Positions 2,867 to 28,764 of a DNA stretch of 64,000 nt are shown here, one piece after another (position 1 is the stretch's first letter; each line of letters opens with the position of its first letter). The translations under genes were made by a program, and so were the position numbers. This DNA comes from Tubulanus polymorphus. Taxonomy: Eukaryota > Animalia > Nemertea. A model generated the notes under the pieces. It saw nothing but the letters and a program-made list of their open reading frames with translations. It was not told where the DNA came from and ran no database searches. The DNA lies in contig NC_134032.1 of NCBI RefSeq assembly GCF_964204645.1, positions 4,116,175-4,180,174 of the forward strand. Reading direction: 5' to 3'.

Positions 2867-5800
2867 TCAGTGTTTGTTTAGTTCTGTTAAAGGTTTCGCA
2901 GGTCGACTGAAGTCTAACTCACCGTACAATCCGACATCTTCCTCGGCGCCTAGGACCATTCGTGGAGCAGTACGCCCCCTAGAGGTGCTCGGTTGAAGCC
3001 TCGCGGGTTCCGGTCGGGACACGTTGTCTAGTCGTGCATAGATCGTCCCATCTTCACCAATATCCTGAAGAAGAAAAGATGTTTAATTATCTCGCAATTT
3101 ATGCGGGTATCAACAACCTAATAGTCGGGACCCCCTACCGCCCTCAGTGTGGACCCCTCACCCTTCAGTCTAAAACCTGCACCCCTCAGCCAGAAACTTG
3201 CATTACCTTCAGCCTTGACCCTGCATTCCCTTCAGATTGTTGAAGGGTTGGTTCCATGCTATAGATTGAGGGGTAGTGGGTGGTTCCACGCTATAGATTG
3301 AGGGAGTGTGGGTGGCTCCAAGCTATAGATTGAGGGGGTGTGGGTGGTTCCACGCTATACATTGAGGGGATGTGGGTGGCTCTAAGCTATAGATTGAGGG
3401 GGTGTGGGTGGTTTCACGCTAAATATTGAGGGGGTGTGGGTGGTCCTATGCTATAGATTGAGGGGTGTGTGGGTGGTTCCATGCTATAGATTGAGGGGGT
3501 GTGGGTGGTTCCATGCTATAGATTGAGGGGTGTGGGTGGTTCCATGCTATAGATTGAGGGGGTGTGGGTGGTTCTAGATCGGGATGGTTCGATACAAACC
3601 TCAATATAAACACTTCCAGCCGTGAAATCATCGTCTTCAACATTCTCAACTAGAAATAAAAAACACATTTCAGAAATAGAATCAGTTTAAGAAATTCGAA
3701 ACGGATTCCGGCTGGACGCGTGGACATGCGTGCGCACCTTCTTCAATGAACCCGACACCAGCAGCAGGTGGAGCAGCTGGAGTAGATGGAGCGGGTGGAG
3801 CAACAGTTCGTCTGCCGATCCGAGCTACAAAACACAGAGAAATATCGCGTTATCACGGACAATTCCGACAGAGTCAGTTACGTCATTTCAAACATGTTAA
3901 AACACGAGTTACCACTAGCGCCAACAGAACATTCATTCTAAGAGTTTCACCGTATTTCTCATCAACAGTAAACTCTTTTAGGTCAAGGACTCGATGAGTT
4001 TTAGGAATAGTTTGTTTCGGAATAAAGGAAGGACTAGTACCGGTACTAGTACTGAACTGTTCACTGCACTAGCCAAATCTACGGATTAGAACCTACAGTT
4101 TATAGTTAATTTACGGTTCATATGGTTGCCAGTTATTAAGAGTAAGACAAGACAATAAGATAAAAACCCACTATTTACAGATTAAAAGAATTTTAGAACA
4201 AAAATTTATTTATTCAATCTAAAATATATAGAATACACGACGTTTCAATCTCACCCTAGATATCATCGTCGGGTGTCTGAGATCGAAACGTCGTGTATTC
4301 TATATATTTTAGATTGAATAAATAAATTCTTGTTCTAAAATTCTTTTAATCTGTAAATAGTGGGATTTTATCATATTATCCGTTCACCACGTTTGAGTGT
4401 GGTTATCGTTCTATTACAAGAAGTTTTGAGGACCAAATGATAGAATGATATCGGGTATTGTAATCAGGTCATCAGACCTGACTGGTCACCACTCGACTGT
4501 GATGATTGCTTAGGGCTAATTCCACACGTCTATGTTTTGCCTAGAACATAAATATTTGGTAATAGTCTTCGAGTCTGACAAATTCATATTTCCAATTCAA
4601 TATACTAAGTATAAGTCATCATTTGTATGAATCATCAGCATCATTATCGGGTTCCTGACTAGTATAGAAAATCTCTAGATATAAGAATAATCTATGCATG
4701 GAATATTCAATTGGTTCTGATGCTGCTAAAACTGGATTTACAGCAATATTACGACATTGAGTGACGAGTTCTCAAACCCCCTGTAAAATATAAACAACGA
4801 ACCAGTAGTATTTCTGTTATACATGTTTCTGCGGTGTACATACAACACGACCGTTACTACGATAACGATTGCAATCACAATTGAGAAACCGATTGCACTG
4901 CCAACTGTTGCCCAGAAACCAGCCACCGTGTACGCAGGACCAGCATTTTTAGAATCTGCAATTATATAAAACTCAACTGTATGTCAACAGTTTCAAATTC
5001 ATTATTTTCGTGGCATTTTTGTTTCAAAAAAGTTTAAAGAGTAAAATGCTTTAATCAGGGTATTTATTTCGCATGAAATGAATGTACACTTTCTAAAACT
5101 TTGGTGATCAATAGAAATAACTCACTTGACGTTGAGGTGGTTTCTGTGACTTGTGTCACTGTTGATGGTCCTACAAATATAAATATATATGTTTGTTCAA
5201 TTTTCAAATGGTACCTAACCCAACCTGCAAGGGGCTCGTGTAACCAATTGATTGTACACTTTTTAAACCTTCTGTAAAAATAACTCACTTGACGTTGAGG
5301 TGGTTTCTGTAACTTGTGTCACTGCTGATGGTCCTACAAATATATATTATCGATTTTGAATATGGTTCGACTCGCGGTGCCGCCGTGTTTTAACTGAAGT
5401 TCAAGCTACAGGACTTAGATTCAACTCCACACAATCAAACAAACTAACAACTTACGCAACCATTTTCGGGCTTAAGAAGTCACAACTGTGCAGGTTTACA
5501 GGTTGTGCTACTCACCAAAATCTACAGTGTTTAACTTGAGGTACTCATTGTGGTACTCACCAAATTCTACAGTTTTTAACTCAATAACAGCCACTTGATT
5601 CGATCCAATGTATGTGCTGGTGGTTGAGTCTGACATCGTTTTTGTTGTGTTAGCGACAAATTGTTGATTCGGGAAAATCTTACTGGAGAACATTGTGAAC
5701 TACAACGAGAAAATCAGAGATAGATTGTAAAAACCTGAGAGAGGTGTGAGGGGTGAGGAGGTGAGAGAGTTAGTGAGGAGGTGAGGGAGTGAGAAATGAG

Positions 5801-8800
5801 AGGGTGTGAGGAGGGTAGAGTAGAAGGGGAGATTGTGAGGGGTGAGGCGGACAATGAGAGGGAGAGGGGGAAGGAGGGCAAGGGGAACCTGTATTGATTA
5901 TTTCAATCAATTCACCTGTAAAATGTAAATCACTGATGATCCTCGATTCCAGATAGCGACGCGAGTAGGATGACCTACATCATGAGTAGGATGACCTACA
6001 TAATGAGCAGGTTGACCTACATTACGAGCAGTTTAGGACTTATTGACAACTTACTTGTTTTAGCAACCACCATTTTTCTCTATTTCCGGATTCGCGTTTT
6101 ATTTTTACAGTTTTAGGTTTTCCAATATTTCTCGTGAAGATGATCACATCTTTTCGTTCTCTGTGTTCCCCGAATTGTGAACCTAGATATGTAAACTGTG
6201 ATTCATTTCGGTCACCGATAATCTGAATATCAACTCTTCCACTGGTATAGTATAACCTGGAACTATTCCACTTGATTCCACTAAAAACAGTGATCTGCCA
6301 TTTAACTAGAAATAACAAGAAAAAATATGACTTTTCACACTTGACCGCAATCTGTGAGGAGGGACCCTTTTACGACCTTTGAGGATAATTCAAACACGGA
6401 TTGGAGCGGATAATCATCATTATCATCAGCTTTCAGCGTGGAGCCTTAGTAGACTTTACACCTAGCCCGCTTGAGGCGTTAAGTTGCTCATAACTCAGGT
6501 TTTAAAAGAAAAGGTTTGTTAGCCTAGGCTTACCGCCACAGTCTAATTATAAGTTCAGTTCATAAGGTATTCTGAGTTCAATAATACGTTTTAACGAACC
6601 TGGTTTATGAATTTCTGAATGATAATTACAAGTCTGTGTGTTTGTGTGGCTCTTACTGCAGTTATACATGTACACAACATTGTCACCATCTATCACACCT
6701 ACTAGCGCCACCTATTGAATTTAAATATATGAATATATGAGTTAATATCAAATTCACACCGGCCTCTCTCTCCACTCCCTCTCCATATTTCTATAACCTG
6801 GATGACGCGCCAGTTTGTATTCCGTGCAGATTTCAACATGAGTTTTCTCGGTGGATGTGGATTTGTGATGTTCACTGGTAACAACAGTTCGTGAGTCTTG
6901 TTTGATCCGGCCTCGAACTCGATTCCCAGGTGGAAGTACGTGATGTCACTACCTGTCTCACCGAAACCTATCCTGACTGTTTGTATTATAATACCTGTAC
7001 GCCCTGTAAACACTATCACCTGCCAAACTGAACCTGAAAGAAATAACAACTGATTTATGTGGTATCCATGGATCTCATCAATTTCAGAATTTCGTTCAAA
7101 TATTTCATTTTTCTACCATTTTTATTGATAAACTATCTTAACCTTTACCTCGTACAAACCGCCAGTACAGTTTGAACCCGACATAGTTTCTATTACTGTC
7201 TGATGTAAACTGTATTGTTATATTTCCAGTGTATAATCGTTTACCAGGAGCTGTCCAGCCACAATATTGATTACTCCCTGATGAAGAAATAAATCTGATA
7301 AAACTTTATGAATCATAAAAAATCATTCACGGTGTGAAGTGTGTTTAGATCTTTACCGATTTCACTTCCTATCGTCAACTTGTCCCAGCAAACACCTTTA
7401 TAATTGACATCTGTACTTTCCTTTATATGAAAATTCTTGTCAAATGATATTTCAACCAGCTGCAAAAATATATATATACAAACTTAGAATTGAATTATCA
7501 TTCATTATCTATTTCAGGAACCGTTTATTTTGATCAGTTTTAACTTAAACCCGGAATTATCGGTTAAACTAAATCCAGGGATAAAGTTAGACCTAATCTT
7601 AGCCCCATTGAGTTTCTACTAGTGCAAATATTACTCACTCCTGAGACCTGCTCGTGCAGAAATTGCGACAATATCATTTTTTTTCTCTAGGATCAACATT
7701 TCACAAATACACAATGTAGATATTTACCATGTTTTCAGGGGTTTTAATCACAATGTATATATTTACCTTGTTTTTTGGAGTCTCAATCCTCCATTTACAA
7801 TCAAGGTGTTCACTATATTTGTCCGGATATTTAGGACTGGTGATGTAACCTGATGTATCATCCTGTACTCTAGGTTTCTTACTACAAGTCGAATCAACTA
7901 CAAATAAATATTGAATTGAATTGTTTTATATGTGATCTACTGATTCCATGATAAACTTCTCATTATGAGCTACCTTTTAATATCCTCCAAATCAGTTTAA
8001 ACCCTTTATACGTGTAGTTTACACTGTTGTCTGATATAAACACATCACCGGTATAGTATTGTGTAGAGGGCGCTGTACTGCCACAATATCCAATTCCACC
8101 TACTGTAATATAACAATCATAATGATTCTAATATATCTTTATTCATCTCCACTTTTACTAAATAATTATTATATAAATACTGATAAAAGATGAAAGTTAA
8201 AAGTACACAAATATAATTCAGAGTTCAGTTTCACTGATAAGATTTAAAACCATTCTAATGAGTGAAGACTATTTTTGGACTCATGCGAAATTAAATCATG
8301 TTTTGTTTCGTTAAAAGAAAATAATGAAGAACGTGATTCGATTCTTACTCGCTATATAGTCAACGCAATTCCCTCCGATATTTGGGGGCTGCAGGCTGAA
8401 TGTTTCAAACAATATTTCAACTTTCTGAAATAGAAATAATTTAGATGTATCGTTATTGAAATGTGTTCACATCATTCTAACTGGTTGTAATCATTAAGGG
8501 TTATTGATAATGAGTGATGTAATGTAATAGTTAAACAGTTCAGCACCCGATTGTCGGGTTCAAAGAGAAATAAAAGTTCTGTTCGACACTCGTACAAAAT
8601 GTGCTGACAAAAATATTCTTCCTAAAGCCCGGCGCCCGATCGATCGTATGATCGCTTCATCGCATGGTTTTATCGCGTCGTCGTAAAGGTATGCCGTGGC
8701 ATCCGGAGCCGATTACATCGCATCATCGCAACAAATCAAACATGTTCGATATTTTCGCATGCCATTTTTCCGTGCGATAAAAATCGTAAAGGTCTGCGGG

Positions 8801-11800
8801 CTACGCTGCCGATTTTCCGAACGAAAATGTTTAGTAGCCAATCAGAATTAAGGATGAAGCAGTCACGTGATGCTCAAAATGGCGGCTCAGTCACGTATTT
8901 GAGGCCTTCATAAAAATCGCTAAGGTATGCGGGGATGATGCGATTTTCATTGTGTCATCGCATACGATGATATGATGATCGTAAAGGTGTGCGCACCCGG
9001 TTTAACAGTGAATATTTCTCACTCCTGAGATTCACAATTTCCTGTGTTTTATATTTACCGTGTTTACAGGTGGAACAATCTTCCATCTACACCACAGGTA
9101 CGCACTATAATTGTCCGGATAACTAGGAGTCGTTATGGTACCTGATCTACCGGTCTGTAATCTGTATGACCGACTGCAAGTTGAATCTGTGTTCTTGTCT
9201 GCTAATATAGAAAACATATCAATGAATGTACAGAAACCGGTCTGTAATCTATATGACCGCCCGTTACTACAAATTGAGTCAGTTTTAACATCTGCCAATA
9301 TAGAAAAAATGTCAATGAACTTATACAGAAACTGCTGCCGCCTGATATCATGGCGCGGAGTAAAAGATTCCAACTTTATTTGACTGCCACGGTCGTCTAG
9401 TAGTAAGTAACTGTGCCAATGCTCGCAGGCCTTAGTTTCAATACTGTTCTCTTTTCTCTCCGCTGTATTTTCTCTACACATTTTTAAAGTCGCGCACATC
9501 AGTACGCATGCGCGGTGTAAATTAGCCAATCAGAGCGAGTTATCGGCAAAATAGTGTTTACAGGAATAATTATGCTACGTCGGTGAATTATCGCTCGCCC
9601 CCAAAAACTGACGCGTTCTGAATAAAGATGGCCGACTAGTGGCCACTTTTCTTCGCCGAAATCAGCACTTTTTATACATTCTAAAAATGTTCAAGGGAAA
9701 TTTTAAAGTTGCTTTGATCAATTCATCTTTCTTACATGTGTATCTCCCAAGGGCTGATCAGCTCAGAAATGGGTTGGTCGGCTGTGTGTGATTGTTTTGT
9801 TCCCAAAAAGGTCGACTGATTTTGGTTTCACCTTTTGCTCTACGATCCTTTATCGGACACTAGGTTCGCGGTGTAATTTATGCCTGAATTCAGAGACCTT
9901 CATCTATTCCTCGCTTGCAAGGGTTTGATTCCCTACCGCTAACACAAACTCTTCAATGAACTACTATATTGCCTATGCTTTATTGAAATAAAAGAACTGC
10001 CCATGAAAACTGCTGGCTACAGGTCCGGAACAACGCGTCATATTGGCCATTTACTGAAGTAAAAAGTCATAGTTTTAACTGATGTCAATGTGTAATGTAT
10101 AAATGCTTCACGTCAAAATCTAATCTATTAATAGATTTACAATCAACTTCCTATTTGATGTGATATATACGAATATGTGCTTGAAATCATAGACAAAAAT
10201 CACTTCAAACTGTTTGGAATCTTGTGTTAAAATTAGCAGGACTGCAACCTCTAAAAACTGTTATCAGTAACAAGTTGAATTTTCTATTGAAATATGAAAG
10301 AAAATTAATCAGTAATCGACAGTAAGACCCTCAGTAACACCTTTCATATCTCTGTTCAAATTAATCAGTAATCAACAGTAAGACCCTCAGTAACATCTTT
10401 TATATTTCTGTTCAAATTAATCAGTTATCAACAGTAAGACCCTCAGTAACATCTTTCATATGTCTGCACAAATTAATCAATAATCAACAGTAAGACCCTC
10501 AGTAACATCTTTCACATTTTTGTAAGCATCAAACAAATCAAATCAGTATTTCTCTGGATAAAGAAGTAACAAATACTGAAAATGTAGAACAGTTCACAGT
10601 TCTGTATTAGTTCATCATCAATGATTTAACCCTAGAATCATAAACTCAAGTGGAACTATGGAACTGGATCCTGATAATTATTAATCTAAATCTTTGAATA
10701 GAAGCCTGCACCAGTGGGGGGAGGGTTTATGAAGAGAGGATGCTACAGTATCCTATCACAACCATGGAGGAGGGCGTGTTACAGGGGATCCACACATCAG
10801 ATATACTTGCAGTCTTCTATATCGTCTTAGGGGACTCTGGCAATTTGAAAATTGATCATCAAACCCGACCCCAAATTTAATCATTAAGTGTATAAAATAA
10901 ATCCTGGACCTTCATAATCTGAATTGAAATACTCTATGACAAAGGAAAGATGACTGGATATCTACCAGAATCTATTTATCATCTTGCCTTCCTCGTAAAT
11001 GGTCACTATTTTCGAAATAACTTAAAGCCCGGCGCACGCAAGTATTGGAGTAAACGAATCAACCTTTTTTGATCTCGTGACAAGTCGGGCAGCAGAGTTT
11101 TGGATAAGCTGCAACTTTTTTTATATTGTACTGACTTGTACCAAGGAAGAGACTATTGCAGTAATCAAGTCTAGAAGTTATAAAACAATGAACTAATCTT
11201 TCCGTGATTGGATTATTTAAAAAATGTCTGGTGGTCATATTGATGTCAAAATAATCACCCAGATTCCGTACCACTTTGCTAGGATGTATTGCACAATCTC
11301 CGATTTGTATAAACTCTAAAAACTCTGATCTACTTTTACTTTGAAATATTGAGGTAAAAACCATTAATCATTAGATCATTAGACAGTAGATCATTAGACA
11401 GTAGATCATTCGAACATTGAAAAGTTCATCATTAGATTATTAGACAGTTGATCATGAGTGGAAAAGGATAAAAAAAGGATATTATTAGGATAAAAAAATA
11501 AATAAAAAAATTAAATAAAATAAATAAAATAATAAATAAAAATAATAAATAAAATAATAGAACAAGAAAATTAACTTTAATGAATCATTTGACGCCTGCG
11601 AAAAAATGTAGATTTTCTGGGAGAAGCCAATGTGGAATTGCAAATTTGAAATCGAAGTTCTAAGAAATTTGGGGAATTATGAGATTTGGCGATTGGGTAG
11701 ATGATACAGTCTTCAATTGGTCTAATTTAAAAAAAATTGTCAACTTGTGACCGACTTCGATTCACTTTTGCCTCTAAGCTGGTCTGCAACTTCATTGCCT

Positions 11801-13587
11801 CCATGGTTGAAGAAAGAGTTCTTTGGATGTTTGATTCATCATGACGTTGAGCATATCGTGTAGCCAGCCGGCCCGGTCCTGGGGCCCGGTTTGGCTGTCA
11901 CTCGATATCCTAGACTTGAGTCTGGGTTGAAGTAGACATTGTCATTTAAAGAACTTATTCATGTTATTCTGTATGAATTAACCGTGTGTCTTGTATTTTG
12001 TATTTCATTATTTTAAGATTTGTAAGTTTTTTAAATTTTATCCCGGAATTTCAATGTAATAAGGATCAATAAAGTATTGAATTGAATTGTCACCTTATAC
12101 ACATGCCATCAATGGACGCGGAGCCGTATATGACAGCTATGCTATTATAAATTGCTAATCTCATGAAACTTGCATACCCCTTATATCGAACATATTTTCT
12201 AAAACATTTGAATATTGAAATTATATGTTTACACGTTTTTATATAGACCGCTTGTAGCCACCGATGAAATTCACGCCGGCCCTACTCAGATCGTAGATAG
12301 CTTCGTCATTCCACTAGCATCCCCATGTCAGGGTCTGACTTTTATATCAGACTTCCAAATCGTGTATACATCCGCCATTTAACCGAATAGTCCGATTTAC
12401 TTATCATTTCTATTTATGCCTGCCGCTTTTGATATAATCATACATCCTTTACTATTACAATACGTCTTCTCATGATATTCAATGCAATATAACATTTCGA
12501 CGTTCAAATAGACGTCATTATATAATCACAGGGAGCCATTCTACATCTTTATCAATAATATTTTGCCAAATAGCTTGTATGTGTACACATAAACCTGTGA
12601 CGTTTTGCACATCGATTTACGGTTGTCGTTTGTAAAATGACGCTGAATGGTTAACATTGTTTAGGTTTCATAATGGTAACGTTTTATAAGGCGTCAAAAA
12701 AAAGATCATTAGACAGTAAATCATTAGACAGTTCGTCATTGAGACCATTGGGCAGTTCATCATTAGATTATTAGATTATTAGTTGATCATGAGATCTTGG
12801 ACAGTAGTTGGAAGCTAGAACTTTACTTCGGGTTTGAAAAACAGTATCGTTACTATCATAAGATTATTAGACATTTAAATAGCTGGAACAGGAAACAACA
12901 AACAACAGATTATTAGAACATTAGACATCAGATTAGACAGTTGATAATTGCATTTTTAAAATATGGATCAAAAATTATGAATCTCTTCTAGAGTAACAGA
13001 TTATTAGAACATTAGACATCAGATTAGACAGTTGATAATTGCATTTTTAAAATATGGATCAAAAATTATGAATCTCTTCTAGAGTAACAGATTATTAGAA
13101 CATTAGACATCAGATTAGACAGTTGATAATTGCATTTTTAAAATATGGATCAAAAATTATGAATCTCTTCTAGAGTAACAGATTATTAGAACATTAGACA
13201 TCAGATTAGACAGTTGATAATTGCATTTTTAAAATATGGATCAAAAATTATGAATCTCTTCTAGAGTAACAGATTATTAGATCATTAGACATCAGATAAG
13301 ACAGTTGATAATTGCATTTTTAAAATATGGATCAAAACCTCTCCTTATCGTCTATAGTTCTAAAGTATATGTGACTTGCATTTGAATACATCAATTAATT
13401 ACTCTCAGAAAAATGATGTAGATAATAAGGAAAGTGCCTCCTAGGTCGTCGGAGCGTTGAATCCAACGTGAGAATGAATCCATTGACATCGATCGCCCAG
13501 AGATATTGATATAAATATGCGCTTACCTAGAGAATTCCCGATGTATAAAAATACAGCGACTACAAACAAACTCTTCATCGACGCCAT
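2867..13587 (-). CDS. Spliced type I membrane receptor: signal peptide-CUB-CUB-PLAT/LH2-PLAT/LH2-S/T stalk-TM-Tyr-motif tail (copy A)
   Basis: Phase-compatible GT-AG exons: 13527-13587 (MASMKSLFVVAVFLYIGNSL); CUB1 at 9059-9201, 8349-8424, 7974-8102 (GTITTPSYPDNY..CRWKI, YCG, GFKLIW); CUB2 at 7767-7897, 7357-7459, 7149-7277 (GYITSPKYPDKY..CKWRI, YCG..QFTSD..GFKLYW); PLAT-like at 6798-7033, 6657-6711, 6055-6305, 5561-5699; stalk at 5289-5333, 5126-5170; TM at 4803-4955; tail at 3738-3824, 3600-3649, 2867-3064 (ends TGA). Small extra exons cannot be excluded. Confidence 0.8.
3245..3575. repeat. ~32-bp G-rich intronic minisatellite, ~10 copies
   Basis: Unit ccatgctatagattgagggggtgtgggtggtt. Confidence 0.95.
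4157..4375. repeat. ~95-bp-arm inverted repeat, probably Penelope-like terminal repeats in inverted arrangement
   Basis: 4157-4252 is the near-perfect reverse complement of 4278-4373. The centre contains a cgacgtttc/gaaacgtcg hammerhead-like core. Confidence 0.7.
8624..9004. mobile_element. Intronic non-autonomous DNA element (PIF/Harbinger-like MITE)
   Basis: Starts taaagcccggcgc and ends gcgcacccggtttaa, with internal atcgtaaaggt repeats. The same terminus occurs at ~11023. TIRs are imperfect. Confidence 0.45.
10302..10516. repeat. ~57-bp tandem repeat, ~4 copies
   Basis: aaattaatcagtaatcaacagtaagaccctcagtaacatctttcata repeated. Confidence 0.9.
11059..11364 (-). mobile_element. L2/CR1-group non-LTR ORF2 post-RT fragment
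   Basis: VVRNLGDYFD...ERLVHCFITSRLDYCNSLFLG. Confidence 0.8.
11775..12700. mobile_element. One-ended copy of the ~1-kb TIR element at 61597-62610 (opposite orientation)
   Basis: aagctggtctgcaacttcattgcc...ggcgtcaaaaa is the reverse complement of ~61597-62444. Confidence 0.8.
12903..13337. repeat. 91-bp near-perfect tandem repeat, ~4.7 copies, in first intron of receptor copy A
   Basis: cagattattagaacattag recurs at 12906, 12997, 13088, 13179 and 13270. Confidence 0.95.
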
Positions 13588-13878: not shown

Positions 13879-14042
13879 GGGATCATTCATTTATAACGTA
13901 CGCATAAAATTTGAAATGTTCAACCCCCCTCCCCCCAGTACGCAAAATCAGCAATTGTTCATATACATTAAGCATTACAGTACGCAATTGCACTGACCCC
14001 CTCCCCCTCCCCTAATGCGTACTTAATAAATGAATGACCCCC
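13879..14042. mobile_element. Short MITE (Harbinger-like termini)
   Basis: gggatcattcatttataacgtacgca ... tgcgtacttaataaatgaatgacccc inverted termini. Confidence 0.7.
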
Positions 14043-14044: not shown

Positions 14045-15470
14045 TAATGAAGCTAAGATTGAAAAATTGGTTAAACTTCACATTTGAATTGGAAGTTGAT
14101 GGAAAAATCCCATTTTAAGATGTGTGCATTCATAATTATTTGTCGTGTTTCTCAGTTTATAGGAAACCCACTCATTCTGGATCCTACTTGCATTATTTTC
14201 CCATTACCACTTATAGCATAAAACTCGGTGTTGCTCAGGGATTATTTCTTCGTGCTTTTAGGATTTGCGACCCCCTTTTTCTCGATGATGAACTCATGGA
14301 ACGAATAGACGTTAATTGTATTTTCGTCCGATTCCATGATCAGCAGAAAGGTTGTCATTTCGTGCCGGTCGACCAGTTGATACCGTGCGTATATTGTAGA
14401 GAGACTATTAGAGAGTTGTGCTCTACTATCGGAAGCGATCATTTGTCGAACGTCTCTTAAAATCCGAACCCAGACGAGGAGAATACTAACTAGTATATTT
14501 TCGATGATCTGACGAGAATATTATATATCTGATGTATGTCAAAGCTCGCGACTCGCAGGTCGGCCCTGTTCTGATCTGATCTATCCTGAACTCAACTGAA
14601 CCGAACTGGGCTTTCTGAACTATCTCAAAAATGTTAATTAGGTATTTTTAAGTGATGACTAGAGTTGACACTAAGCGTAAAACTGACATGTGAGAGAGTG
14701 CCAAACTTACAATAATATACTATTCAGAACTATGATGATATTAATTATCTTTCTCCAAAGTTGGTAATTACTAAATCAATAGAGTATCTACTACAATTGT
14801 TATTTTACTGATGATCATAAGATATACATCTGACATTGAAACTATAGTGTAAAATCCTCAATTCATAACACTCACTCAGATCAGGAATTCCCCTTAATAA
14901 GTAAGCTAATCCTAACGACTTTTTGAATAAAGCTCTTTTTCGAGCCCGTCGCACTCATTTTTGTAATTCTCGAGTTTCGCGCCCTCAGAAACAGCCAATC
15001 GTCGTACCTTTTGTTCCTTTTTTGGAAAAATCAAAAACTCATTAACAAACAGCTCATTTACACTTACAATAATAAACTTAGTCATAACTTAACTCACAAT
15101 TCCTGCAAAACGGAACCTTTAAACATTGGTGTATACAAGATACCTTGTAAAGTATGTAATCAAATATATATTGGTGAAACTGGGCGTGATTTGAATAAGC
15201 GCCTCAGAGAACATAAAAATGACGTCAAAAATTTCAAACCCGAAAGTGGACTAGCTAATCACGTTTATGAACGTCTAGTCACAATTTTGATTTTGATTAT
15301 GCCGCTATAATCTTTCCCTGTCCCGATAAAACCAAACGTCACATTACGGAATCTGCCCTAATTATTGAAAATATGGATAAATGTGTTAATTTGAATAACA
15401 GTTTTTCTCCTCACAATATTTTGATCTCTAAATTTCTCACTTCACTTGTACCCTCATTATTCTAATCCTG
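14045..15470 (+). mobile_element. Penelope-like element remnant (RT thumb plus GIY-YIG endonuclease), interrupted by another repeat at ~14300-14880
   Basis: SVYRKPTHSGSYLHYF...LFLRAFRICD and GVYKIPCKVCNQIYIGETGRDLNKRLREHK. Confidence 0.88.
14300..14715. repeat. Dispersed repeat family nested in the Penelope-like remnant
   Basis: Reverse-complement homologs at ~35020-35365 and, more diverged, ~37880-38140 (e.g. cgactcgcaggtcg, gaacgtctctt, aaactgacatgtg). Confidence 0.6.
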
Positions 15471-15689: not shown

Positions 15690-16144
15690 CGTCTTGAGAA
15701 AAATATTTTCAATTATTCTGAATACACGCATTATACAATGGTTAGAGGCACACCAAGTATTAAATAATGCACAGGCCAAATAATGGTACTATAAATCAAT
15801 CCTTTGTATTATCTTCAATCATCGACCACTGTATAACGAAGAAAATGAAAAATGCGTGTATGGCATTCGTAGATTTTTCTAAGGCCTTCGATTATTTGAA
15901 CCACGACATTCTCTGGAAAAAGATCCTGGAAGCTGGTATCACTGGCAAAGTTTATAACATAATTAAATCTATGTATGCTAACAGTGAATCATGTGTCAAA
16001 AACAATGGGTTCATATCTAGCTTTTTTGACTGCACCGTCGGCGTAAGGCAAGGCGACTGTATCTCGCCTGTACTTTTCAATATCTATATAAATGACATGG
16101 AAGAATTTTTTATAAACAATGGCAGTTCATCTACTGAACATTGA
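15690..16144 (+). mobile_element. Non-LTR reverse transcriptase core fragment
   Basis: KIFSIILNTRI, AFVDFSKAFDYLNH, GVRQGDCISPVLFNIYIND. Confidence 0.88.
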
Positions 16145-17442: not shown

Positions 17443-20080
17443 AAAATAAACTCGTTTTGAGTTTGAAACAAATCAGCTGAATGTTCATAAATATGACATT
17501 ATATGTTTTTGAATGAGAAAACTGCGTTGTATTATAGCATATGAAACCATCATGACAGATAATTTCACTTCCTTGTACGAGACTATTTCGAACACTTCGA
17601 GAAACTTGAGAAAAAAATAGATTTTGATTAGTTTCGTTTTTAGTAAATTCGTCGAAATTAAGAACACTCGAAAAAATCGAAAGAAAAAAAATCATCCAAT
17701 TAACAATCAACTAACGAGGCTAAAATTTGTAATTTTCTGAGAAAGCTTGTAAAACCGTAGGAAATATTTTGAACACATTTATCCAAGTTCTTGCCTGGTA
17801 AATTGTATGGTTTATGTAAAGTCCACGAAGACAATTTTCTATTCAGATCGGCTGAATAAAGCTAAAAATATCTGCACGAAATTATCAAACCACATAATAC
17901 AACAGTTATTTCATGCTAGACAGTAACTGAAAATTTCTGGAAAGACTCAAAAGTTTTCCAGAAAATTTCACCCTTTCGATATAGGCCTACTGTATCAGTT
18001 ATGATCTCCGTTCACAAACCTGCGTCGCTTAAAAAAAAAAAAACTACGTTCACCCAAATTCAGATTATATTTATAACTCAACATTACAAACCCTCATATG
18101 ATACAAGAGCGCATTTAAAGAACTTCTTAAAAACGCTACGTCCGGGATGTTTAATGCGGCGACAATCGCCTATATTTAAAACGAGATGATGGTGTAACCA
18201 CGCGTAGCCAGTTAGACCCTACTCTAGTAGCCGAACTCAATCCGGCAAATTCTGAGAGTTTGTTTTATTTCCAAACTCAAACCGGCATCGTACCTTAGAA
18301 AAGTCGATGATATTTGTGTCTATTTTTTTGAACTAATTCTAATTACTAATTTGCACGAAGATATTTTATTATTACTAAACTAGAAATATTTGCTAATAGA
18401 AATTTTTAAAACTAGGATAATATAATTTCTGATACATGTATCGCGCGTGTTGCTTGCCGAGTCACAGAATGACGTCATTTTTGATGCGAGTAGCTAACTA
18501 AAAGTCACCGATTATCCAAGGCGAATATTCGGAAAAACGCCGCGGAGAATTTGACGTTTGAAACTAATCAAGTTTTCCGACGTAAGAATATCGCAGGTTC
18601 AAACACGCGTTCAATGCAGAGTTTTCCCGCGAAACCCGAGTTTTAGAAACATCGCATTTTTGCTGGTGTAGACAGTAAACCGGGATAGGTACCGGGTCTT
18701 GAGCGTTAAACACCTACGGAGTGAATGATATAAAATCACCGGTGTTAGATATATTGCTAACTCATACTATTCCTGTTTTCAGGTGGTAGAATAAGCAAGT
18801 TTTCGCGGTAAATTGGACAGAAACGGATCGGGCCATTAACCGGTGTTTGGGATAACCGGAGAAATTTAGATGGATGGACTCATCTTACAGCAGTTATCAG
18901 CGGGAAACACGAATAACCAGTTTTCAGAGTAGAATTCCGAGGTGTAGATTCATTCTATGATATTGAGTCCCAGAATCCAAATTTAGAATTCTGGAGAAAC
19001 TTTCCATCTGCGATATTTCATCAGATCCTAACCGCTCTTTCAGGGTTAACGATGATACATTTGATGGATTTACATATATCCGCTATTTCTGATATTTGTT
19101 TCCGATATTTTTGTACTAAAACTTGTGTGAAATAAGCTTCAGAACAACATAGCATACAACTATTAGTGTTCCGTTTATAAGGATTGGTCTATGTTTCTAA
19201 GGATTATCTGGTCGAGGTTGTTCCAGGATTGACAGTAGTTCCAATTTCATGTAGTCATAAGGTGGCTCATTTCATATTCTGTAGTTCAGTTTTCTCACTT
19301 TGTTTCTAGTCTCTTTCTAGTGTCTGTAAATCTTACTGTGAAGTTGTGACTTGCAGTGTATTTTTATGAGTGTTCTCAAACGGTGGATCATTTAGTGAGT
19401 TGAATTGACTGTAGACGGCAGCACTAGCTGGTTAATGCATAAATATCTCAAAACATCCTACAACCCAGTCAAATAAATTCATCAAAATAGGATTAGATGT
19501 TTATAGATCCCTCTAATAGTTGATATATTGTAAATAGTGGATGTTTGTATCATTAACAACTTTGTTATATTTTATCGAGAAAAGTTCCTAATTCCTAATA
19601 CATTATTTTACCTATTCGATTCACTCATCATTCGATTCAAACATCATAATTTTATTGGCGTTAACTGATAAAATTTGGATTTCTTGCGATTTGTTTACAA
19701 ATATTTTCACGAATTAAGAGAAAAATAAAAACATTTCAATGAAAAACATAACAAGGTTATTTACAATATATACAAATACATGTACTATTTACTAAAACAC
19801 ACGACAGACAGGGGGATAGAGATTAGACTGGTTGCCGGTCTCTTATTACCGATTAGATTTATACAATTAAACCAGTCTTACCTGTGTTTGAGGAGATTGA
19901 GATCCACTTACGTCCAGCACTATTCACAGAAGGCGAAATCAATTGACAGATTAAACGTCTGAATGAGTTGTCAATCATAAATCAAACTCCGCCTAAAATA
20001 GAAAATCATACATAACACAATGAGAAATGCTAACACACGAGAGAGGGCCGTAATCTGGCGTGGACGTATAATTTTGATAT

Positions 20081-20271
20081 CTTTTTTTCAACCCGCTAAG
20101 CGCCACGCAGGGCATTAAAAGCGGGTTCGACGTTTCTTTCTCCCGATGGGGTAGAGACCGGAGAAGAACCTTCGACCGATAAACTCTGTCGCCACCGGGG
20201 TTTGAACCCATAAACCCTGGATTGACGAGACCAGTGACCGGCGGCTTAAACCAACTCGGCCACTGCGTCGC
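20081..20271 (-). mobile_element. tRNA-derived SINE
   Basis: A box tggccgagttgg and B box gggttcaaaccc, followed by a non-tRNA body and a short A tail. Confidence 0.7.
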
Positions 20272-21931
20272 TTGTATCATTCCTCGTGTTTGTGGTCATT
20301 CGTAGAATTACCATCAAACTTCTCCTTATACGGGTAAGTCTCAGTTGTAGATCAGGCAATAATTGATAGCTAAAAAGTTAATCTAAAATATTAGAAATAT
20401 TTCGGGTTTCTTCGGTTTGAAAATGCATATTTCTAAACCATAGAAGGATCTTAGCAAACACCTGCAATATTTCTAATATTCTAAATAAACTCTTTAGGTA
20501 TCAATTCATTTATTGTGGAATTTTACAGGTAAGTCTTGTTTAATTGTATAATTCTACTCATTTCCACAATTCACACGCAATTCTACGAGATTTCGAATGA
20601 AAAATTCATTTCGTCGATGAATAAAAAGTCCGTACCGACTACAGTTGTGCAGATCCTCGCCAGAGTATTCTCAGAAGTTCCGATTATCGGCTTATTATAA
20701 AACTGTGCAAACGTGTCTTCGCAGTACGACCATCTGAAAGTGTTCGCGTCGAGCTGCTTCAACAGCTGAAGCAACCGCTGCCTGAGTTGAATGACTCCCA
20801 CATCTAGAAGTATCAGTTCCTGTATCCGACAAAACATCTTTCATTCACGATGTATATATTGTGTCTCCCGATACCCCGGCATCAGGCTCGATACGACCTA
20901 TAAATAATTGATCGCAAAAACCGGCTCGATTATTAGCAGACGATAGTCGAATAGAACTCAAAATTAGCAGACGATAGTCTAATAGAACTCAAAATTAGCA
21001 GACGACAGTCAAATAGAACTCAAAATCAACTGATTCAAATTGTCCGAGAGTCACAGATCCTGTAAGTTACCTCTCACACGCCACACGTCAGCAGGCTCCG
21101 CATCTCGAGATCAATTTCTTCCTGCAAGGTTAAACGTAAACTCGATTATTACACATTCTCATCAACTCGCGATACCAGACCCGAGTAGTATATATTAGAC
21201 AACTCGAGAAGAACGCCCTACTTTCCCGGTTCCTTGAAACAAATCCGTGTTTAATGAATCAGTTTAGTTCAACTGTTTAGATTTATTTTACTATCAATCA
21301 ATCAATACGCTCTGTTAGGAGCTGAGTTAGAGAGCTACTGTAGTTAACCTTAGTCTGATTTGTGAACAAATTATGTTTTATCGAAGCCAGTGAAAAGAAT
21401 AACATTCGAATAGATCGTTTAGAACCAATCAAACTGACGTCTCCGGCTCTCCTGGAACCAGGGCAGGTTCAAATCCCAGAAAAAAGGCCATTTTTCATAG
21501 GCACACAGGAGCCTCGAAGCCCCTAAGAAGGTCTGGGAATTTTTCGAATTTTAAAAGCCTCATTTGCTAGAAGCCGTTTCCTGCATTCTGAACCTTGGAA
21601 TATGAACAAGTTACTCACCACTTACACCGCTATTGTCTGTGTCTCCGTCAGAAAACTTTTAAACTGAAGCACCCCGAGGAGGATGATCATTCTGTATTGC
21701 TTGCCGATTGTGAACAGTATTGAGATCATTTGTCTGTTGTATCAGAAGTGTAATAGGATCAGCTACATCATTTGGCTGTGGTCGATTGTCAGATGATTGT
21801 GGAATTGGATTATCGAAACATCAGACGATTGTGGAATTGGTTCATTAACATGATTTGGCTGTGGTCGGTTGTCAGATGATTCTTAACTGAAATTATAAAT
21901 AAACTAGAATTGTAAAAAATCTTTGAAGTTA

Positions 21932-22135
21932 GGCTAAAAAGGAAAATTGATACCTTGTTTCTCTGCTCTGCTGAGCAGATAAGTTGACCCGGCTGGCCGC
22001 CTATCTACCCTGTACATTACTTTTTTTTTGAAATTGTGATTTTACCATCCGGCCGCTATAGAAATGAACTGTTTACATATTTTACAAAAATGACCCGGCC
22101 GCTGCAGAGAAACAAGGTATCATTTTTGTTTAGCC
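21932..22135. mobile_element. MITE with TTA target-site duplication
   Basis: tta|ggctaaaaaggaaaattgataccttgtttctctgc ... gcagagaaacaaggtatcatttttgtttagcc|tta. Confidence 0.75.
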
Positions 22136-23375
22136 TTATCTAAAAAAACCGATTCATGTAATTTCATTCGAAAGTAAGGGGAATCTTGTTTTAATAAGAA
22201 AGGCAATTGACCGGGATGAATTACTACCTAAAGACCCTGTATTAATGGACGACACATATCGGCAAAAAGAAGGTTTAGGATCTTAAAATCTAAATACTGA
22301 AGACAGCATGATTTTATTTTGTAATTTTCCGCAATGCGAATGTCAGTAAAACGGCTGCTGCAGAAAGAGGCGTCTAATGGGATGAATTAAGGCTAAACTA
22401 GAGGCGCGTGATGGGACAGCGAGCCTCACGAGGGGAACTTTCCAAAAGTAGCAACTTTGAAGGGAATGTAAATCATTGTTGAAACTAAGCTTAAAACAAA
22501 TCAAATGCATTATCATTTAGTTATTATTATTAGTATTATTATTATTTCCAGGTTTATGTTTCTAAACTGATTAATGTCATGAAGATGCTATTTTGAATTT
22601 AAGAGGCCAAGTTTGATTTTCAGCTATTCTCTTTATGAAATTGATAACAGATAAAATGGTATTTATCATCGTAATTTAAATCAATTTGCGATCTAGCCTC
22701 AACTTTGCCCGCGAGTGCTACGAGTGTAATGATCTTTACATTTTTAGTCTATATCCACGAGTTCAGGAGATATTGAAGTTTGTTTCTATGAAATATTGCC
22801 TTCTTAAGATCATTGTATTGAAACGTGAAGTCGACACTATTCGCTGAAATTTTCAAACTTCAGATCGCGATAGGCCTATCTCGAAAACTACCGAAGATAT
22901 TTCAAAAATGTGAAAAGCATATCGTTATTCGAGCCCACCCTGTTTTGTTAGTTTTTATTTTGGTAAGATTTTTTTACAGAGGCTAGAACAGCAGAGACCA
23001 GCAATTAGTCTATAAAATCAAAATCTATCATTTAATTTATCATCACTAAACGATGAAAAGATTACTAGCGACACCTAGCGGATTCAACAGGAGTCAGCGG
23101 CTCTGACAGTTCTATGAATAGTCTATATGTACACGTGGCGATTTGAACACAGACTACACTGGACATTAAAATAGTGGATAAAAAGCGTCTTTTTGCAAAA
23201 TTGACGGGGAAAATGCTGATGTTTTTACATTTTGCTGCTGCTTTTACTTGTTCCTTGTCTTACGCCGAATCGAGCGGTCTTTAGTCGGCAGTTTTTATGT
23301 TAAAATCCTGATTTTATGCGCAGCGAAACAGAAATCAAAACAAATCCGCGCCATCCATTTCAAAGACTGGTTGCC

Positions 23376-24053
23376 TGTTCTGGAATTTTCTCAATACTAA
23401 AATCATTTGATCTTCATGGTGTTTGGTCTAATCATGGCTCCAACCACCCCAATAAAATTATCAAACTGCTCCAGTCTAAAATGTATCTTTTATATCCTTC
23501 TTCGTGGCTATTTTAAATCAACGAAAGTAATTCCAACCCCAAATTAAGAACTTACAAACTTTTTAAAAAACGCTTTGAACTAGAAAAATATATAATTTCG
23601 AACTCTTTCCTTAAAAGACGCGAATTTTCCAAACTGCGTCTCGGTTCCCATCGGCTTAGAATCGAGACGGCGCGTCACTGTCGTCCATTTTTACCAGCCA
23701 ATGAGAGATTTTGCCTCTACTGTACTGTAAATAAAGTCGTTGAGGACGAATCCCACTTTTTACTCATTGTCCCTCGTTTCATCCTGCCAGAGTTTCCATT
23801 TTATCCTCACTTGTATGTTTCACTGAGTTTGAGTCTTTTTGTGTTTTCGATAAATTCTTATTTTTGATGTCTTATAACAACGGAGACTATGAAATTGCCA
23901 GCCGTATGTGTAACCTAGTTAACTCTTTACTTCAACACTTTGATTCTTTTTATATTATATTCACTTGGTTGTATCGCCACCTAGTTTCCTTGCTGTAGTA
24001 TTATATTTTGTTTTACATTTTACATATTTTATTTGCAAATATTCTCTATTCCT
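23376..24053 (+). mobile_element. 3' end of a non-LTR retrotransposon ORF2 plus 3' UTR
   Basis: KLRTYKLFK...FSKLRLGSHRLRIETARH...ERFCLYC...VEDESHFLL. Confidence 0.8.
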
Positions 24054-25944
24054 ATTGTAGCGGAAATTCCTGTTAAATAGTTTAAAATGTTGTCGTTATA
24101 ATGTATAGTTTCTGTTTTTCCGCTGCGGAGCCCTCCTCATTTTTTTTAATTGTAATGTTTTTGGGCGATAATTAGCTCGCGCCTTTCATTTCACGTTCTG
24201 TGCACCTCATTTTCTCTGCATATAGTAATTTAATTAATTTCAGCTTTTAATAATCAAAACTGTAGGTTGATCACTTTTCGCTCTCACCTTATTTTACTAC
24301 GTAAGATCCCGATTTACTATTTGTATAGTCGTCTAAACTTTTAAACTCGGAGCTTTTGCGCAGCGGCCATTTTTTGTGCTGTGTGACATCATCTTCCATG
24401 CACGATGACGTCACACTGCGCGGATCTATAAAAATGGGTCAGCGCGCGCAAACGTCACTCTCGTCTCGACCTACATTGATTAGAGGTAAACAACAATGCG
24501 CGCTCTCCTGGCCTGGGGCAACCCAGGTCAGGCCGGGCTCTGACGTCAGTCAACTCGACGATATGTATCTATTTTTAATCCATCGGGAATAGTCAACCTG
24601 GCGGCTTTTTCCTTTCGGATGAGACGTGTCGTGAGATCTGTCTCTGAAACCTTTTTAATTTTATGCCATGGGCATTATTTTGGGTCTTCGTGGGCCTAAA
24701 TTTAGCGACCATTGAGTCATTAATCGCGGATTTTTGCAAGGACAGATCCTTGCACTAGCCTCTTTTATAGATAATAGATTATAAATAATAAATAATTCAT
24801 AACTAAGATAGATTATGATTTTTTTTTTAGACCATTTATTTAACCTTTTTATTTGAATGAGGTGTACAATTCAATTATTGTGATAAAAACTTCACGTGCA
24901 ATATGTAAATATGTATACAAATTATACAGTAGTTATTCGTTTCTGAAATAATAATTTTCTATATTATTCAATACAAGACTTATCACTATCGTGGGGGGGG
25001 GGGGGTTGCGTTTGGACGAAGTAGGATCCACTTTCTTGAGGCCAGGTCCAAAAAAATCTAATTCTTTATGAAGTGGCGAGTGTCGGGGTGTCTTTAGACA
25101 CATAGATGGGGGCAAGATACTACGCCAGGACGAGATCGTGCAGGGAGGCACTCGATATGATGTTACACCGTGAGGACCTGAGGAAAAGATGCGCCGGAGC
25201 TCGGGTGACTGTGAGGTTCCGACATCGAGTCAAGGGCCCTGACTCGATAGACCTCATGGCGGACACCTGTCCGGTCTGGTCCGGGTAATTGGGTCAATAG
25301 TTAAGACTCTGACACTTGCTTCCTTCTCCCCTATTCCTTTTTTACGAACTATAAACTTTTTGTCTCTGAAGCTGTCCATCCCTTCGGCGGAAACTTTCTG
25401 AGGATTTCCCCTTTGTAGTTCCACTCCCCGGGACTACAGGACCAAGGCGGACCCCCTGTAGCCACGCTTATTGATAAGATAGATAAGATAATTTATTACT
25501 CTCCAACCATTTCCATGGTACGTGGAGGAAAAAAAAGATTTTGTTTACAAATATTCACATATCGAGAGAATAATAAAAAATATTTTAAAAACATAAGAGT
25601 ATTTACAATATTGAGGAGATCTGATGATCACGACACCTATCGGTCGCTACCAGAGGATGACACTAAATCGCGGACGCGTACCGGCTACACTATGTTATCC
25701 ATTTGCCCTCTCTTTATTTGACCTCCGTTCAACACTTTGATTATTTTTATATTATATTCACTTGATTGTATCGCCACCTAGTTTCCTTGCTGTAGTATTA
25801 TATTTTGTTTTACATTTTACATATTTTATTTGCAAATATTCTCTATTCCTATGTTATCCATTATAAAAGCGATTATAAATGTATGTCAACTCTCGTACTG
25901 TTTTTCCTGTGTTTTGATGTTAATATTTTATTGCATGTTATTTC

Positions 25945-28764
25945 CTATGTGACACCTGCGAAAATGTAGGTATCTTCTGTAGGGGTCGTGACACCTGCGA
26001 CAACCTCTGTACGGTACCTGATGATATCTACATCATCGTAGTCATCATCATCATCATTTTCGATGTCTTCATACACGTCGTCCTGAGTTTGATAGATAGG
26101 GTCAGCACGACCGGCAGTTGTAGGCTGATAATAATTCAGAGAAACACAAATATTCCACACGTGGTATAAATAAAGGGACATGATTGAAAATAACGGAAAT
26201 GTATTGATATGAACAAACCTGAAGGTAAATATCCCCGGGATCGGGATCAGTCGTGTTGTTACCTGTATATACAACAATAGAAAATACTACATGAATTCAA
26301 AGAGTTTCTGATTATATTCTCATAGACCCAGTAACACTGTTATCAAATTTTACACCTCCCCCGCTTAAAATCCCCCTCTATTTAAAACACCCTATCCCCC
26401 TCTCAACACCTCCCCCCTCGGAGTAAGATGATAAATAACAAACCAGTATTTCTGCGGCGTCTGAGCAACACGACTGTGGCAACGATTGTTATCAGAGTTA
26501 CCAAACCGATTCCACCACCGACTGCTAACCAGAAACTGAGTCCGTTAATACCAGCCGCAGTATCTGCAAAACCAATTTTTTCATATGTACCCGTTATGTT
26601 TCTAAATGAAATTTACCTATACAGTTTCAAATTCATTTTCGTGGCAATATATGTCTCAAAAAATGTTCTGCGATAAAGTAATCATTTTGCAAAATAGAAT
26701 GAACACTTTCTATAAAAATAACTCATTTGATGTTGAGGTGGTTTCTGTGACTTGTGTAACTGTTGATGGTCCTACAAATATATATTATCAATTTTGAATA
26801 TGGTTCGACTCGCGGTGCCGCCGTGTTTTAACTGAAGTTCAAGCTACAGGACTTAGATTCAACTCCACACTATCAAACAAACTAACAACTTACGCAACCA
26901 TTTTCGGGCTTAAGAAGTCACAACTGTGCAGGTTTACAGGTGCTACTCACCAAATTCTACAGTGTTTAACTTGAGGTACTCATTGTGGTACTCACCAAAC
27001 TGTACAGTGTTTAACTCGGAATACTCATTGTGGTACTCACCAAATTCTACAGTGTTTAACTCAATAACAGCCACTTGATTCGATTCAATGTATGTGCTGG
27101 TGGTTGAGCCTGACATCGTTTTTGTTGTGTTAGCGACAAATTGTTTATTCGGGAAAATCTTACTGGAGATCATTGTGAACTACAATGAGAAAATCATCAC
27201 AGATAAGTAAATTTAAAAACCTGAGAGAGGTGTGAGGGTTGAGAGAGTTAGTGAGGAGGTGAGGGAGTGAGAGGGTATGAGGAGGGGAGAGTAGGAGGGG
27301 AGATTGTGAGGGGTGAGGAGGACGATGAGAGGGAGAGGGGGGAGGAGGGCAAGGGGAACCTGTATTGATTATTTCAATCAATTCACCTGAAAAATGTAAA
27401 TCGCTGATGATCCTCGATTCCAGATAGCGACGCGAGTAAGATGACCTACGTAATGAGCAGGTTGACCTACATTACGGGTAGGTTGACCTAGATCACGAGT
27501 TTTGGTGGTTAGTGTCTGTATCTGGTAACCTGTAGTGATGCGACCGAGTCGACTGTAACCAGATTGAACTCCATTTGATCCAAACAGATTCACATAAAGC
27601 TCCTCAGTTTTTTTATCAGTTTCAATCTTGATTCTCCATTCAACTGAAACAATTAAAACTGTCATTAACAATCATTGTGTTTATAACTGATAGAAATATT
27701 CAATATTTGTGTCGACAAATTCATTAAATTCAGATCTAATTTTGCACCTTCTCTGGTTGTATTCGGGAACAGAGAAACTTTGTTGTTATCCTTTCTATCC
27801 AAGAGAACATTAAAACCGAAATCCGTTTCAGTGACGTCATCAGATTTGAGTTCAACCTGAAATTATATGCATAAACAAGTGTACAAACGACTGTGAATTA
27901 ATTTTACCAGTCCGGACTACAGTTTAGGACTTATTGACAGCTTACTCATTTTAGGAACCACCAATTTTCTCCATATCCTGGTTTGCGTTTTATTTTTACA
28001 GTTTTAGGTTTTCCAATATTTTTCGTAAAAATGATCACATCTTTTCGTTCTCTGTGTTCCCCGAATAGTGAACCTAGATATGTAAACTGTGATTCACCTC
28101 GGTCACCGATAATCTGAATATCAACTCTTCCACTGGTATAGTATAACCTGGAACTATTCCGCTTGATTCCACTAAAAACAGCGATCTGCCATTTAACTAG
28201 AAATAACAGGAAAAAAATATGACTTTTCACACTTGACCGCAATCTGTGAGGAGGGACCATTTTACGACCTTTGAGGATAATTCAAACACGGATTGGACCG
28301 GATAATCATCATTATCATCAGCTTTCAGCGTGGAGCCTTAGTAGACTTTACACCTTGCCCGCTTGAGGCGTTAACTTGCTCATAACTCAGGTTTTAAAAT
28401 AAAAGGTTTGTTAGCCTAGGCTTACCGCCACAGTCTAATTATAAGTTCAGTTCATAAGTAATTCTGAGTTCAATAATACGTTTTAACGAACCTGGTTTAT
28501 GAATTTCTGAATGATAATTACAAGTCTTTGTCTTTGTGTTTGTGTGGCTCTTACTGCAGTTATACATGTACACAACATTGTCACCATCTATCACACCTAC
28601 TAGCGCCACCTATTGAATTCAAATATATGAATATATGAGTTAATATCAAATTCACACCGGCCTCTCTCTCCCCTCCCTCTCCATATTTCTATAACCTGAA
28701 TGACGCTCCAGTTTGTAATCCGTACAGATTTCAACATGAGTTTTCTCGGTGGATGTGGATTTGT
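25945..28764 (-). pseudogene. Second copy (B) of the PLAT-stalk-TM receptor; 5'-truncated, with a different cytoplasmic tail
   Basis: Exons 28696-28764, 28555-28609, 27946-28196 (ends TGA where copy A has CAA), 27748-27856, 27387-27643, 27041-27179, ~26726-26770 (donor GT>AT), TM 26444-26563, tail 26219-26262 and 25945-26124. Confidence 0.8.

Follow-up and report, generated by a model that had tools for sequence, protein, structure and literature searches.

Evidence for ectodomain exchange between two tail classes of a CUB-PLAT receptor family in the nemertean Tubulanus polymorphus

A 64,000-nucleotide stretch of the Tubulanus polymorphus genome (Nemertea), here called the window, carries two related receptor loci 20 kb apart on its minus strand, gene A and copy B. 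A sequence-only reading had taken them for members of a paired-receptor family, in which near-identical ectodomains are kept over unrelated phosphotyrosine tails. The question raised by this locus is whether one set of outer domains has been shared between two kinds of signaling tail, and whether the two kinds might oppose each other. We found a family of single-pass CUB-PLAT receptors in which ectodomains have been exchanged over two classes of transmembrane (TM) helix and tail; in this genomic anatomy and in the exchange we have high confidence.

The near identity of the two window loci, introns included, was confirmed, as was its loss at the TM exon. Between A 6866 to ~5275 and B 28764 to ~26712, 587 of 616 exon positions (95.3%) and 805 of 831 intron positions (96.9%) are identical. 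The intron before the TM exon agrees at 110 of 133 positions (82.7%) and the TM exon itself at 86 of 119 (72.3%; Fisher p 7e-9 and 1e-12), so that divergence is not uniform along the genes but steps from 95-97% to 72% identity. Past the TM exon, 36 of the first 50 aligned intron bases are alike, and a short intron segment scored above 295 of 300 shuffles. One small pair of phase 1-0 tail exons scored above 1999 of 2000 shuffles, a result weaker than it appears because the pair was picked by eye. Alignment of the whole cytoplasmic peptides is at chance level (365 of 2000 shuffles); between the cytoplasmic parts, no blastn match reached E 1e-5. Given the likeness of the TM-flanking intron and of the tail exon pair, we read the tails as old paralogs, probably distant homologs. 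To call the tails unrelated therefore goes too far; that they cannot be aligned holds for the whole peptides but not for the TM exons and flanking intron (72% alike) or for the one exon pair.

Copy B is a pseudogene in this assembly, and the window pair is not the family's working pair. Homologs on one 16,677,571-bp sequence comprise five A-tail and two B-tail loci, those of the window included; we compared the paralogs as proteins. P0002 and P0005 combine an A tail with two PLAT-like domains, P0003 and P0007-P0010 an A tail with three, and P0014 and P0019 an A tail with one, the model having no TM helix; P0006 is an A fragment and P0013 an ectodomain fragment. The intact B-tail gene of the public annotation (P0004 and P0012) encodes a signal peptide, two CUBs, and three PLAT-like domains. 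The number of PLAT-like domains therefore varies from one to three among members, and secreted isoforms are annotated for both tail classes (P0011 and P0018). The family's loci bear the identifiers LOC141909485, -489, -575, -709, -754, -829, and LOC141910058. A distant paralog on another chromosome (P0015/P0020) combines four CUBs and two PLAT-like domains with a short tail, acidic and tyrosine-bearing, that ends in DEEYEEL. It is a natural outgroup and possibly a third signaling class, its ending resembling a hemITAM (the hemi form of the immunoreceptor tyrosine-based activation motif). A search with the PLAT region against 1.84 billion representatives returned seven matches, six from T. polymorphus and one unrelated repeat protein of a beetle (P0017), which we discarded as spurious.

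Tails and ectodomains of these paralogs have different histories. In a quartet of gene A and P0009 versus P0004 and copy B, the informative sites of TM and tail follow tail class without exception (49/49), whereas among 13 ectodomain sites only 4 agree with it, 3 of them located at the stalk edge, and 8 group the two window copies instead (p 3.5e-8). Ectodomains therefore appear to have been exchanged over an old A/B split. Across the ectodomains of the three intact types, triplet sites cluster in runs (59 of 112 same-type neighbors, permutation p 5e-5), and the closest partner among the three switches from run to run. Four ectodomain trees include both B copies and never pair them as sisters, whereas the TM-plus-tail tree joins them at 99% (trees built without the fragments P0013, P0016, and P0006, with rows below 45% coverage removed per segment). 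A and B are 86-93% identical in PLAT2, compared with 49-53% to the outgroup P0015, and 48-55% identical in the TM, compared with 33-48%; relative to P0015, the tail split is therefore old and the ectodomains are young.

Homogenization is uneven along the protein. Intact B and the A copies share 59-70% in CUB1, 70-81% in CUB2, and 83-93% in the PLAT-like domains, and CUB1 is the family's most variable domain, with the same 59-70% among four intact head types, whichever tail they carry. At the very 5′ end, A and B loci have the signal exon and an upstream first exon (19978-19880) in common: 19-20 of 20 signal-peptide residues of gene A are common to three A paralogs and the intact B paralog, and 32-33 residues of the upstream exon are identical to the annotated N termini of P0007 (A tail) and P0012 (B tail). 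The outer parts are likely a patchwork across copies, made by gene conversion or unequal crossover, which are indistinguishable because proteins alone were compared. The search for further paralogs with separate trees thus yielded a multi-copy family, two tail classes, and segment-wise tree conflict. Of the proposed shuffling of ecto- and endodomains, the exchange of ectodomains between classes stands, but the tails are old paralogs rather than shuffled foreign endodomains. The tree conflict and non-uniform divergence fit the proposed homogenization by gene conversion, or one by unequal crossover, but CUB1, the likely ligand-binding domain, is the least homogenized.

Gene A runs on the minus strand from an ATG at 13587 to a stop at 2867 and comprises 17 exons encoding 694 amino acids, as modeled from splice sites and from paralogs with the same tail exons. 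Read on the minus strand, all of its introns are GT-AG and phase-compatible. The signal peptide is followed by a pair of CUB and a pair of PLAT-like domains, then by two Ser/Thr stalk exons, the TM, and a 122-residue tail; one PLAT-like exon is 100% identical to a T. polymorphus RefSeq protein (LOC141910058). Its features are as follows.

19880..19978, minus: alternative first exon upstream of gene A, GT donor (tblastn 100%, translation)
13527..13587, minus: exon 1, ATG and signal peptide (exon model, paralog comparison)
7974..9198, minus: CUB1, exons 9198-9059, 8424-8349, 8102-7974 (Pfam, exon model)
7149..7897, minus: CUB2, exons 7897-7767, 7459-7357, 7277-7149 (Pfam, exon model)
6600..7033, minus: putative PLAT-like domain 1, exons 7033-6798, 6711-6600 (exon model, spliced contig)
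5561..6305, minus: PLAT domain 2, exons 6305-6055, 5699-5561 (exon model; PLAT fold of a paralog's domain 2)
5275..6866, minus: homogenized block, partner 26712-28764 (A/B alignment)
5126..5333, minus: 45-nt Ser/Thr stalk exons, 5333-5289 and 5170-5126 (exon model)
4803..4955, minus: TM exon, GxxxG, uncharged (exon model)
3913..3934, minus: relic 3′ half of a tail exon (ECSVGAS), whole in A paralogs
2867..3824, minus: tail exons 3824-3738, 3649-3600, 3064-2867 (exon model)

Gene A is itself eroded. It lacks 420 bp found in copy B (B 27500-27920, 1.5 exons), a skip that keeps the frame; its second PLAT domain is a hybrid left by this deletion at 6028/6029, with a relic exon end at 6028-5916. 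The 5′ half of one small tail exon is also missing (relic 3934-3913). Upstream of exon 9198, a partial tandem copy of the 5′ part of the first CUB1 exon with AG/GT ends (9332-9236, minus) is possibly an alternative or relic exon. The intron after the TM exon holds an inverted-repeat element (4151-4380; 103-nt arms, 95% complementary) at a depth of about 2000-2500, which suggests a high-copy element resembling a miniature inverted-repeat transposable element. A 32-nt repeat in the last intron (3246-3576), readable as PSIYS units, was rejected as coding because the frame shifts at each unit.

Copy B consists of ten exon remnants from 28764 to 25945 on the minus strand, and the earlier statement that it is damaged proved right on several counts. 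Signal-peptide and CUB exons are missing, a TGA at 27948-27946 stands where paralogs have Arg, and the stalk-exon donor is AT instead of GT. Furthermore, a fragment of a G protein-coupled receptor (GPCR; 29397-28765) is joined in frame to what remains of the first PLAT-like exon. Near identity of the ectodomains accordingly applies to the PLAT-like/stalk block and not to the CUB part, which copy B has lost. The remnants and the attached fragment are as follows.

28765..29397, minus: truncated intronless rhodopsin-type GPCR, about TM1-TM5 (Pfam, GPCR comparison)
27041..28764, minus: PLAT-like exons 28764-28696, 28609-28492, 28196-27946 (TGA end), 27856-27748, 27643-27387, 27179-27041 (exon model)
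26727..26771, minus: stalk exon, AT donor (exon model)
26444..26563, minus: TM exon, GxxxG, uncharged, 41/42 identical to the intact paralog P0004 (exon model)
25945..26262, minus: tail exons 26262-26219 and 26124-25945, YEDI-x7-YDDV (exon model)

Copy B may be debris of recombination between family members. The motifs quoted for both tails in the sequence-only reading all sit in canonical, phase-compatible exons; one of them, DTYIF, is peculiar to copy B, the end of the intact B paralog being read in a different frame. The tail does not look like part of an unrelated neighboring gene, with the splicing of B's TM exon to its tail resting on splice sites and the public model P0004/P0012. Intronless rhodopsin-type GPCRs lie at 48234-49232 (plus) and, truncated, at 28765-29397 (minus); the fragment is 59% identical to the intact one. 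DNA read depth over the truncated copy reaches about 1000, compared with 35-80 over the receptors, and therefore suggests a very large, young GPCR expansion.

The identity of the CUB domains is clear: P0004 and P0009 each contain two stretches matching Pfam CUB (PF00431) at E about 1e-31, the window exons match too, and the closest solved relatives are cubilin and the neuropilins. The second PLAT-like domain was examined in a structural model of P0009 (region residues about 115-229; mean pLDDT, the predicted local distance difference test, 54). It matched the PLAT domains of lipoxygenase, lipase, and Rab6IP1 with Z of 10.3-12.4 and root-mean-square deviations of 2.3-2.9 over 105-110 residues. 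In Pfam it scored 22.9 bits against a PLAT cut-off of 23 (atlas leads 0.89); no Foldseek match reached E 0.001, with lipoxygenase N-terminal domains appearing at probability 1.00. By this model, the second domain is a PLAT beta-sandwich. PLAT-like domains 1 and 3 are all-beta, with Z under 8 to other sandwiches, and all three share one exon layout (236/251/257 plus 112/109/139 nt, phases 1-0-1). Pfam found no match for single PLAT-like exons or for the tails.

The tails differ in their tyrosine motifs. TIYARL and GLYGEL lie 38 residues apart in gene A, a spacing compatible with tandem SH2 binding, and TIYARL is kept in five of five A tails. TIYARL matches the library motif of the SHP2 C-terminal SH2 domain and resembles the 600 nM peptide TIpYATI (PMC12878756). 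None of the five A tails contains a canonical ITIM (immunoreceptor tyrosine-based inhibitory motif; S/I/V/LxYxxI/V/L) or switch motif (ITSM), TIYARL being TxYxxL; the call of an inhibitory-like A tail therefore retains the SHP2 fit but not the ITIM. The copy B tail has YEDI-x7-YDDV, with the spacing of an immunoreceptor tyrosine-based activation motif (ITAM) and V in the last position (relaxed YxxI-x7-YxxV); the strict ITAM is absent. Two acidic YxxI/V sites arose in 4-5 of 5000 shuffles, and YDDV is a shown Nck/SLP-76 site in ADAP (PMC2908683). By their fit to vertebrate data, the A tail likely docks an SHP2-type phosphatase and the B tail Src/Syk/Nck-type SH2 proteins. All six TMs examined contain GxxxG. 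Searches with the tails revealed no foreign donor for either: B's TM and tail matched P0004 alone (proteins of 413-1316 amino acids), and the A tail matched nothing among proteins of 30-453 amino acids, a weak blank because P0006, a non-representative cluster member, was missed too.

These motifs also fit outputs that do not oppose each other. SHP2 can signal positively, and the A motif fits SHP2 without being a canonical ITIM. A might thus recruit SHP2 as a Ras/ERK activator and B might signal through Nck to actin. Their field would then be adhesion, guidance, or sensing, on the pattern conceivable for neuropilin- or CDCP1-like CUB receptors, and not immunity. Such a reading gains from the nearest solved CUB relatives, cubilin and the neuropilins, and from the outgroup tail, which is likewise acidic (B versus outgroup, 11 of 1000 shuffles), so that the B style may be ancestral. 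Lineage-restricted expansion, a hypervariable N-terminal domain, secreted isoforms, and copy turnover would, however, be typical of conflict recognition receptors and not of conserved developmental ones, and we consider non-opposing outputs unlikely.

Independent reads support the existence of both classes. Raw DNA reads from a different study and sample (X5) were scanned over about 12% of the run at 88% likeness. Their depth, which gives ratios only without a single-copy control, was 36-52 in the B TM/tail bins, 36-59 in the A TM/last-exon bins, and 67-79 in the first PLAT-like domain. The 420-bp skip occurred in 5 reads, the skipped part being covered at about 42-45, and a 933-bp skip matching the one-domain paralog occurred in 10 reads. 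Run X8 yielded three things: one contig in which PLAT-like exons are spliced together, the last exon of A (9 differences), and the last exon of B (10 gap letters, fitting the different ending of the intact paralog). Runs X6 and X7 gave no matching records and X9 gave two. Uncollapsed haplotypes or a misjoin could be suspected from the 94-100% identity of the gene A and P0005 ectodomains and from the GPCR-PLAT junction (28764/28765), which no read bridges among the matches listed in X5. However, A and B differ by 4-5%, by the 420-bp indel, and in their tails; both indel forms and both tails are present in the X5 reads; and the annotation lists an intact B, complete in its ectodomain, as a gene of its own. 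An assembly artifact is therefore largely refuted for A versus B, and we regard it as very improbable.

How might such a family work? CUB heads would bind a variable ligand, and clustering by the ligand would lead to phosphorylation of the tail tyrosines. The two tyrosines of A could then engage the tandem SH2 domains of a phosphatase, while YEDI-x7-YDDV of B could drive actin or phagocytic signaling. The PLAT/stalk block would be an exchange platform, moving variable CUB heads between the two tails, and the shared 5′ exons would keep the expression of A and B coupled. That the two diverged TM-plus-tail classes of this CUB-CUB-PLAT family work as such a brake and accelerator is, to us, an evenly balanced proposition.

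Several results weigh against it. Neither a canonical ITIM, ITSM, ITAM, or hemITAM nor a charged TM residue was found in any tail or TM examined. The relaxed ITAM pattern arose in 526 and 651 of 20000 shuffles (2.6-3.3%) and the TIYARL pattern in 4-6%, modest enrichments of patterns chosen post hoc. CUB1 of intact B is no nearer to A than A copies are to one another (61-70%, save 94% between gene A and P0005), and a shared ligand is therefore not evident. Only one intact B is annotated among the seven loci with a tail, and the RefSeq model of gene A (P0001) skips two CUB1 exons and stops just past the TM, so that the tail is absent. Among the matches listed, neither class has a contig that joins TM to tail. 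Support in the ectodomain trees is weak for the most part (22-94%), no ortholog from another species that could date the A/B split came out of the PLAT-region search, and the 26 changes between the window copies give a ratio of nonsynonymous to synonymous change (pN/pS) of 0.94, in line with a dead copy.

Some of these points suit another history, in which an unstable cluster recombines wherever its copies are alike, exchange goes no further than the stalk, the TM/tail halves having diverged too much for pairing, and A and B, each a receptor in its own right with its own ligand, were never selected for opposing outputs. The pN/pS is near 1; many copies are broken or rearranged (copy B, P0006, P0013, P0019 without its TM, the relic exons of A); the GPCR-PLAT fusion looks like blind rearrangement; and the best-homogenized part is membrane-proximal, not the variable CUB1 head. 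However, both classes retain intact motif-bearing tails, an intact B exists, and blind exchange alone would not give identical 5′ exons across classes together with diverse CUB1. Moreover, B-tail DNA depth about equals that of the A tails in an independent individual, and B is therefore no lone relic. We rate such a by-product of array turnover as a real but lesser possibility. A bolder form of the brake-and-accelerator reading would make the family a paired immunoreceptor system of neither the immunoglobulin (Ig) nor the lectin kind that evolved independently in a spiralian. Promoter and signal exons would be shared, CUB heads hypervariable, and the homogenized PLAT block a recombination hinge, so that new heads reach both phosphatase-docking and ITAM-like tails, with GxxxG pairing of A and B and secreted decoys; this we regard as doubtful.

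The window also holds repeats and apparent mobile elements. A 551-residue open reading frame plus continuation at 40022-42007 (minus), with small exons near 38910-39700 and no confident Pfam match, resembles a tyrosine-recombinase (Crypton-like) element. Decayed non-long-terminal-repeat and Penelope-type pieces lie at 1-2061 (minus), 31779-33020 (plus), 15764-16144 (plus), and 14119-15465 (plus), the last two with Pfam RVT_1 and GIY-YIG matches. AT-rich runs of short broken reading frames at 50654-51900 (plus) and 62833-64000 (minus), which look Polinton/Maverick-like, gave no confident Pfam match in the three tested. Tandem arrays at 3246-3576, 12904-13337, 30850-31546, 43615-44202, and 52142-53374 have units of about 32, 91, 41, 83, and 20 nt.

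Among known systems, the pairs SIRP/Siglec and CEACAM1/CEACAM3 have Ig folds and near-identical N-terminal domains. In function, B is most closely modeled by an activating partner of such pairs whose own tail, ITAM-like but non-canonical, binds Src/Nck. Merohomogenized paired opposing receptors, as described in PMC3210942 (KLRC/NKG2, KLRB, Ly49, PIR, DCIR/DCAR), share with the Tubulanus family an old signaling split, patchwise ectodomain exchange between classes, and clustered genes. However, theirs homogenizes the ligand-binding domain and not the stalk, whereas in Tubulanus PLAT and stalk are homogenized and CUB1 is diverse. The Tubulanus receptors also differ in having no ITIM and no charged-TM adaptor route, a non-Ig, non-lectin fold, and no cross-species orthologs to date the split. 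Related, linked ectodomains do sit on two TM/tail classes, with homogenization confined to the ectodomain over an old split, but canonical motifs are absent and the domain pattern is inverse, and we therefore do not file the family as a paired-receptor member.

Invertebrate parallels are also partial. The Botryllus Fester family and fester coreceptors (PMC12582321) are likewise type I families. Recombination between their genes has put ectodomain and endodomain trees in conflict, and they carry tyrosine motifs that are non-canonical. Intact B has one match (DVYDDV) to their core-2 motif, but not the pair 29-33 residues apart seen in Botryllus. The Botryllus receptors differ in their Ig superfamily domains, canonical ITIM/hemITAM in some, sensor and signaling chains on separate genes, and a shown allorecognition role. 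Hydractinia Alr (bioRxiv 10.1101/2022.03.04.482883) resembles the family in its clustered single-pass receptors, its tails more divergent than ectodomains, and its ITAM/ITIM-type motifs, but is cnidarian, with Ig/fibronectin type III ectodomains and canonical motifs. The spiralian clusters PTC1/GRC, PTC2, and LG5R of Biomphalaria also encode variable single-pass TM proteins tied to recognition; the abstract of PMC13712769 mentions neither a CUB-PLAT architecture nor opposing tails. PMC12297450 does not mention ITIM or ITAM, and we found no paper on a CUB-PLAT receptor architecture or on such nemertean receptors in the open-licence literature.

Paired activating and inhibitory receptors are known from vertebrates and, in Ig-fold form, from one tunicate and one cnidarian. 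A nemertean CUB-PLAT version, if true, would implement the same logic through another fold, with non-canonical motifs and inverse homogenization, in which the head is variable and the stalk shared. With one intact B, several A copies, and an outgroup, this is a small, testable family in which to ask whether selection favors swapping ectodomains over fixed tails or whether turnover of the array yields it as a by-product.

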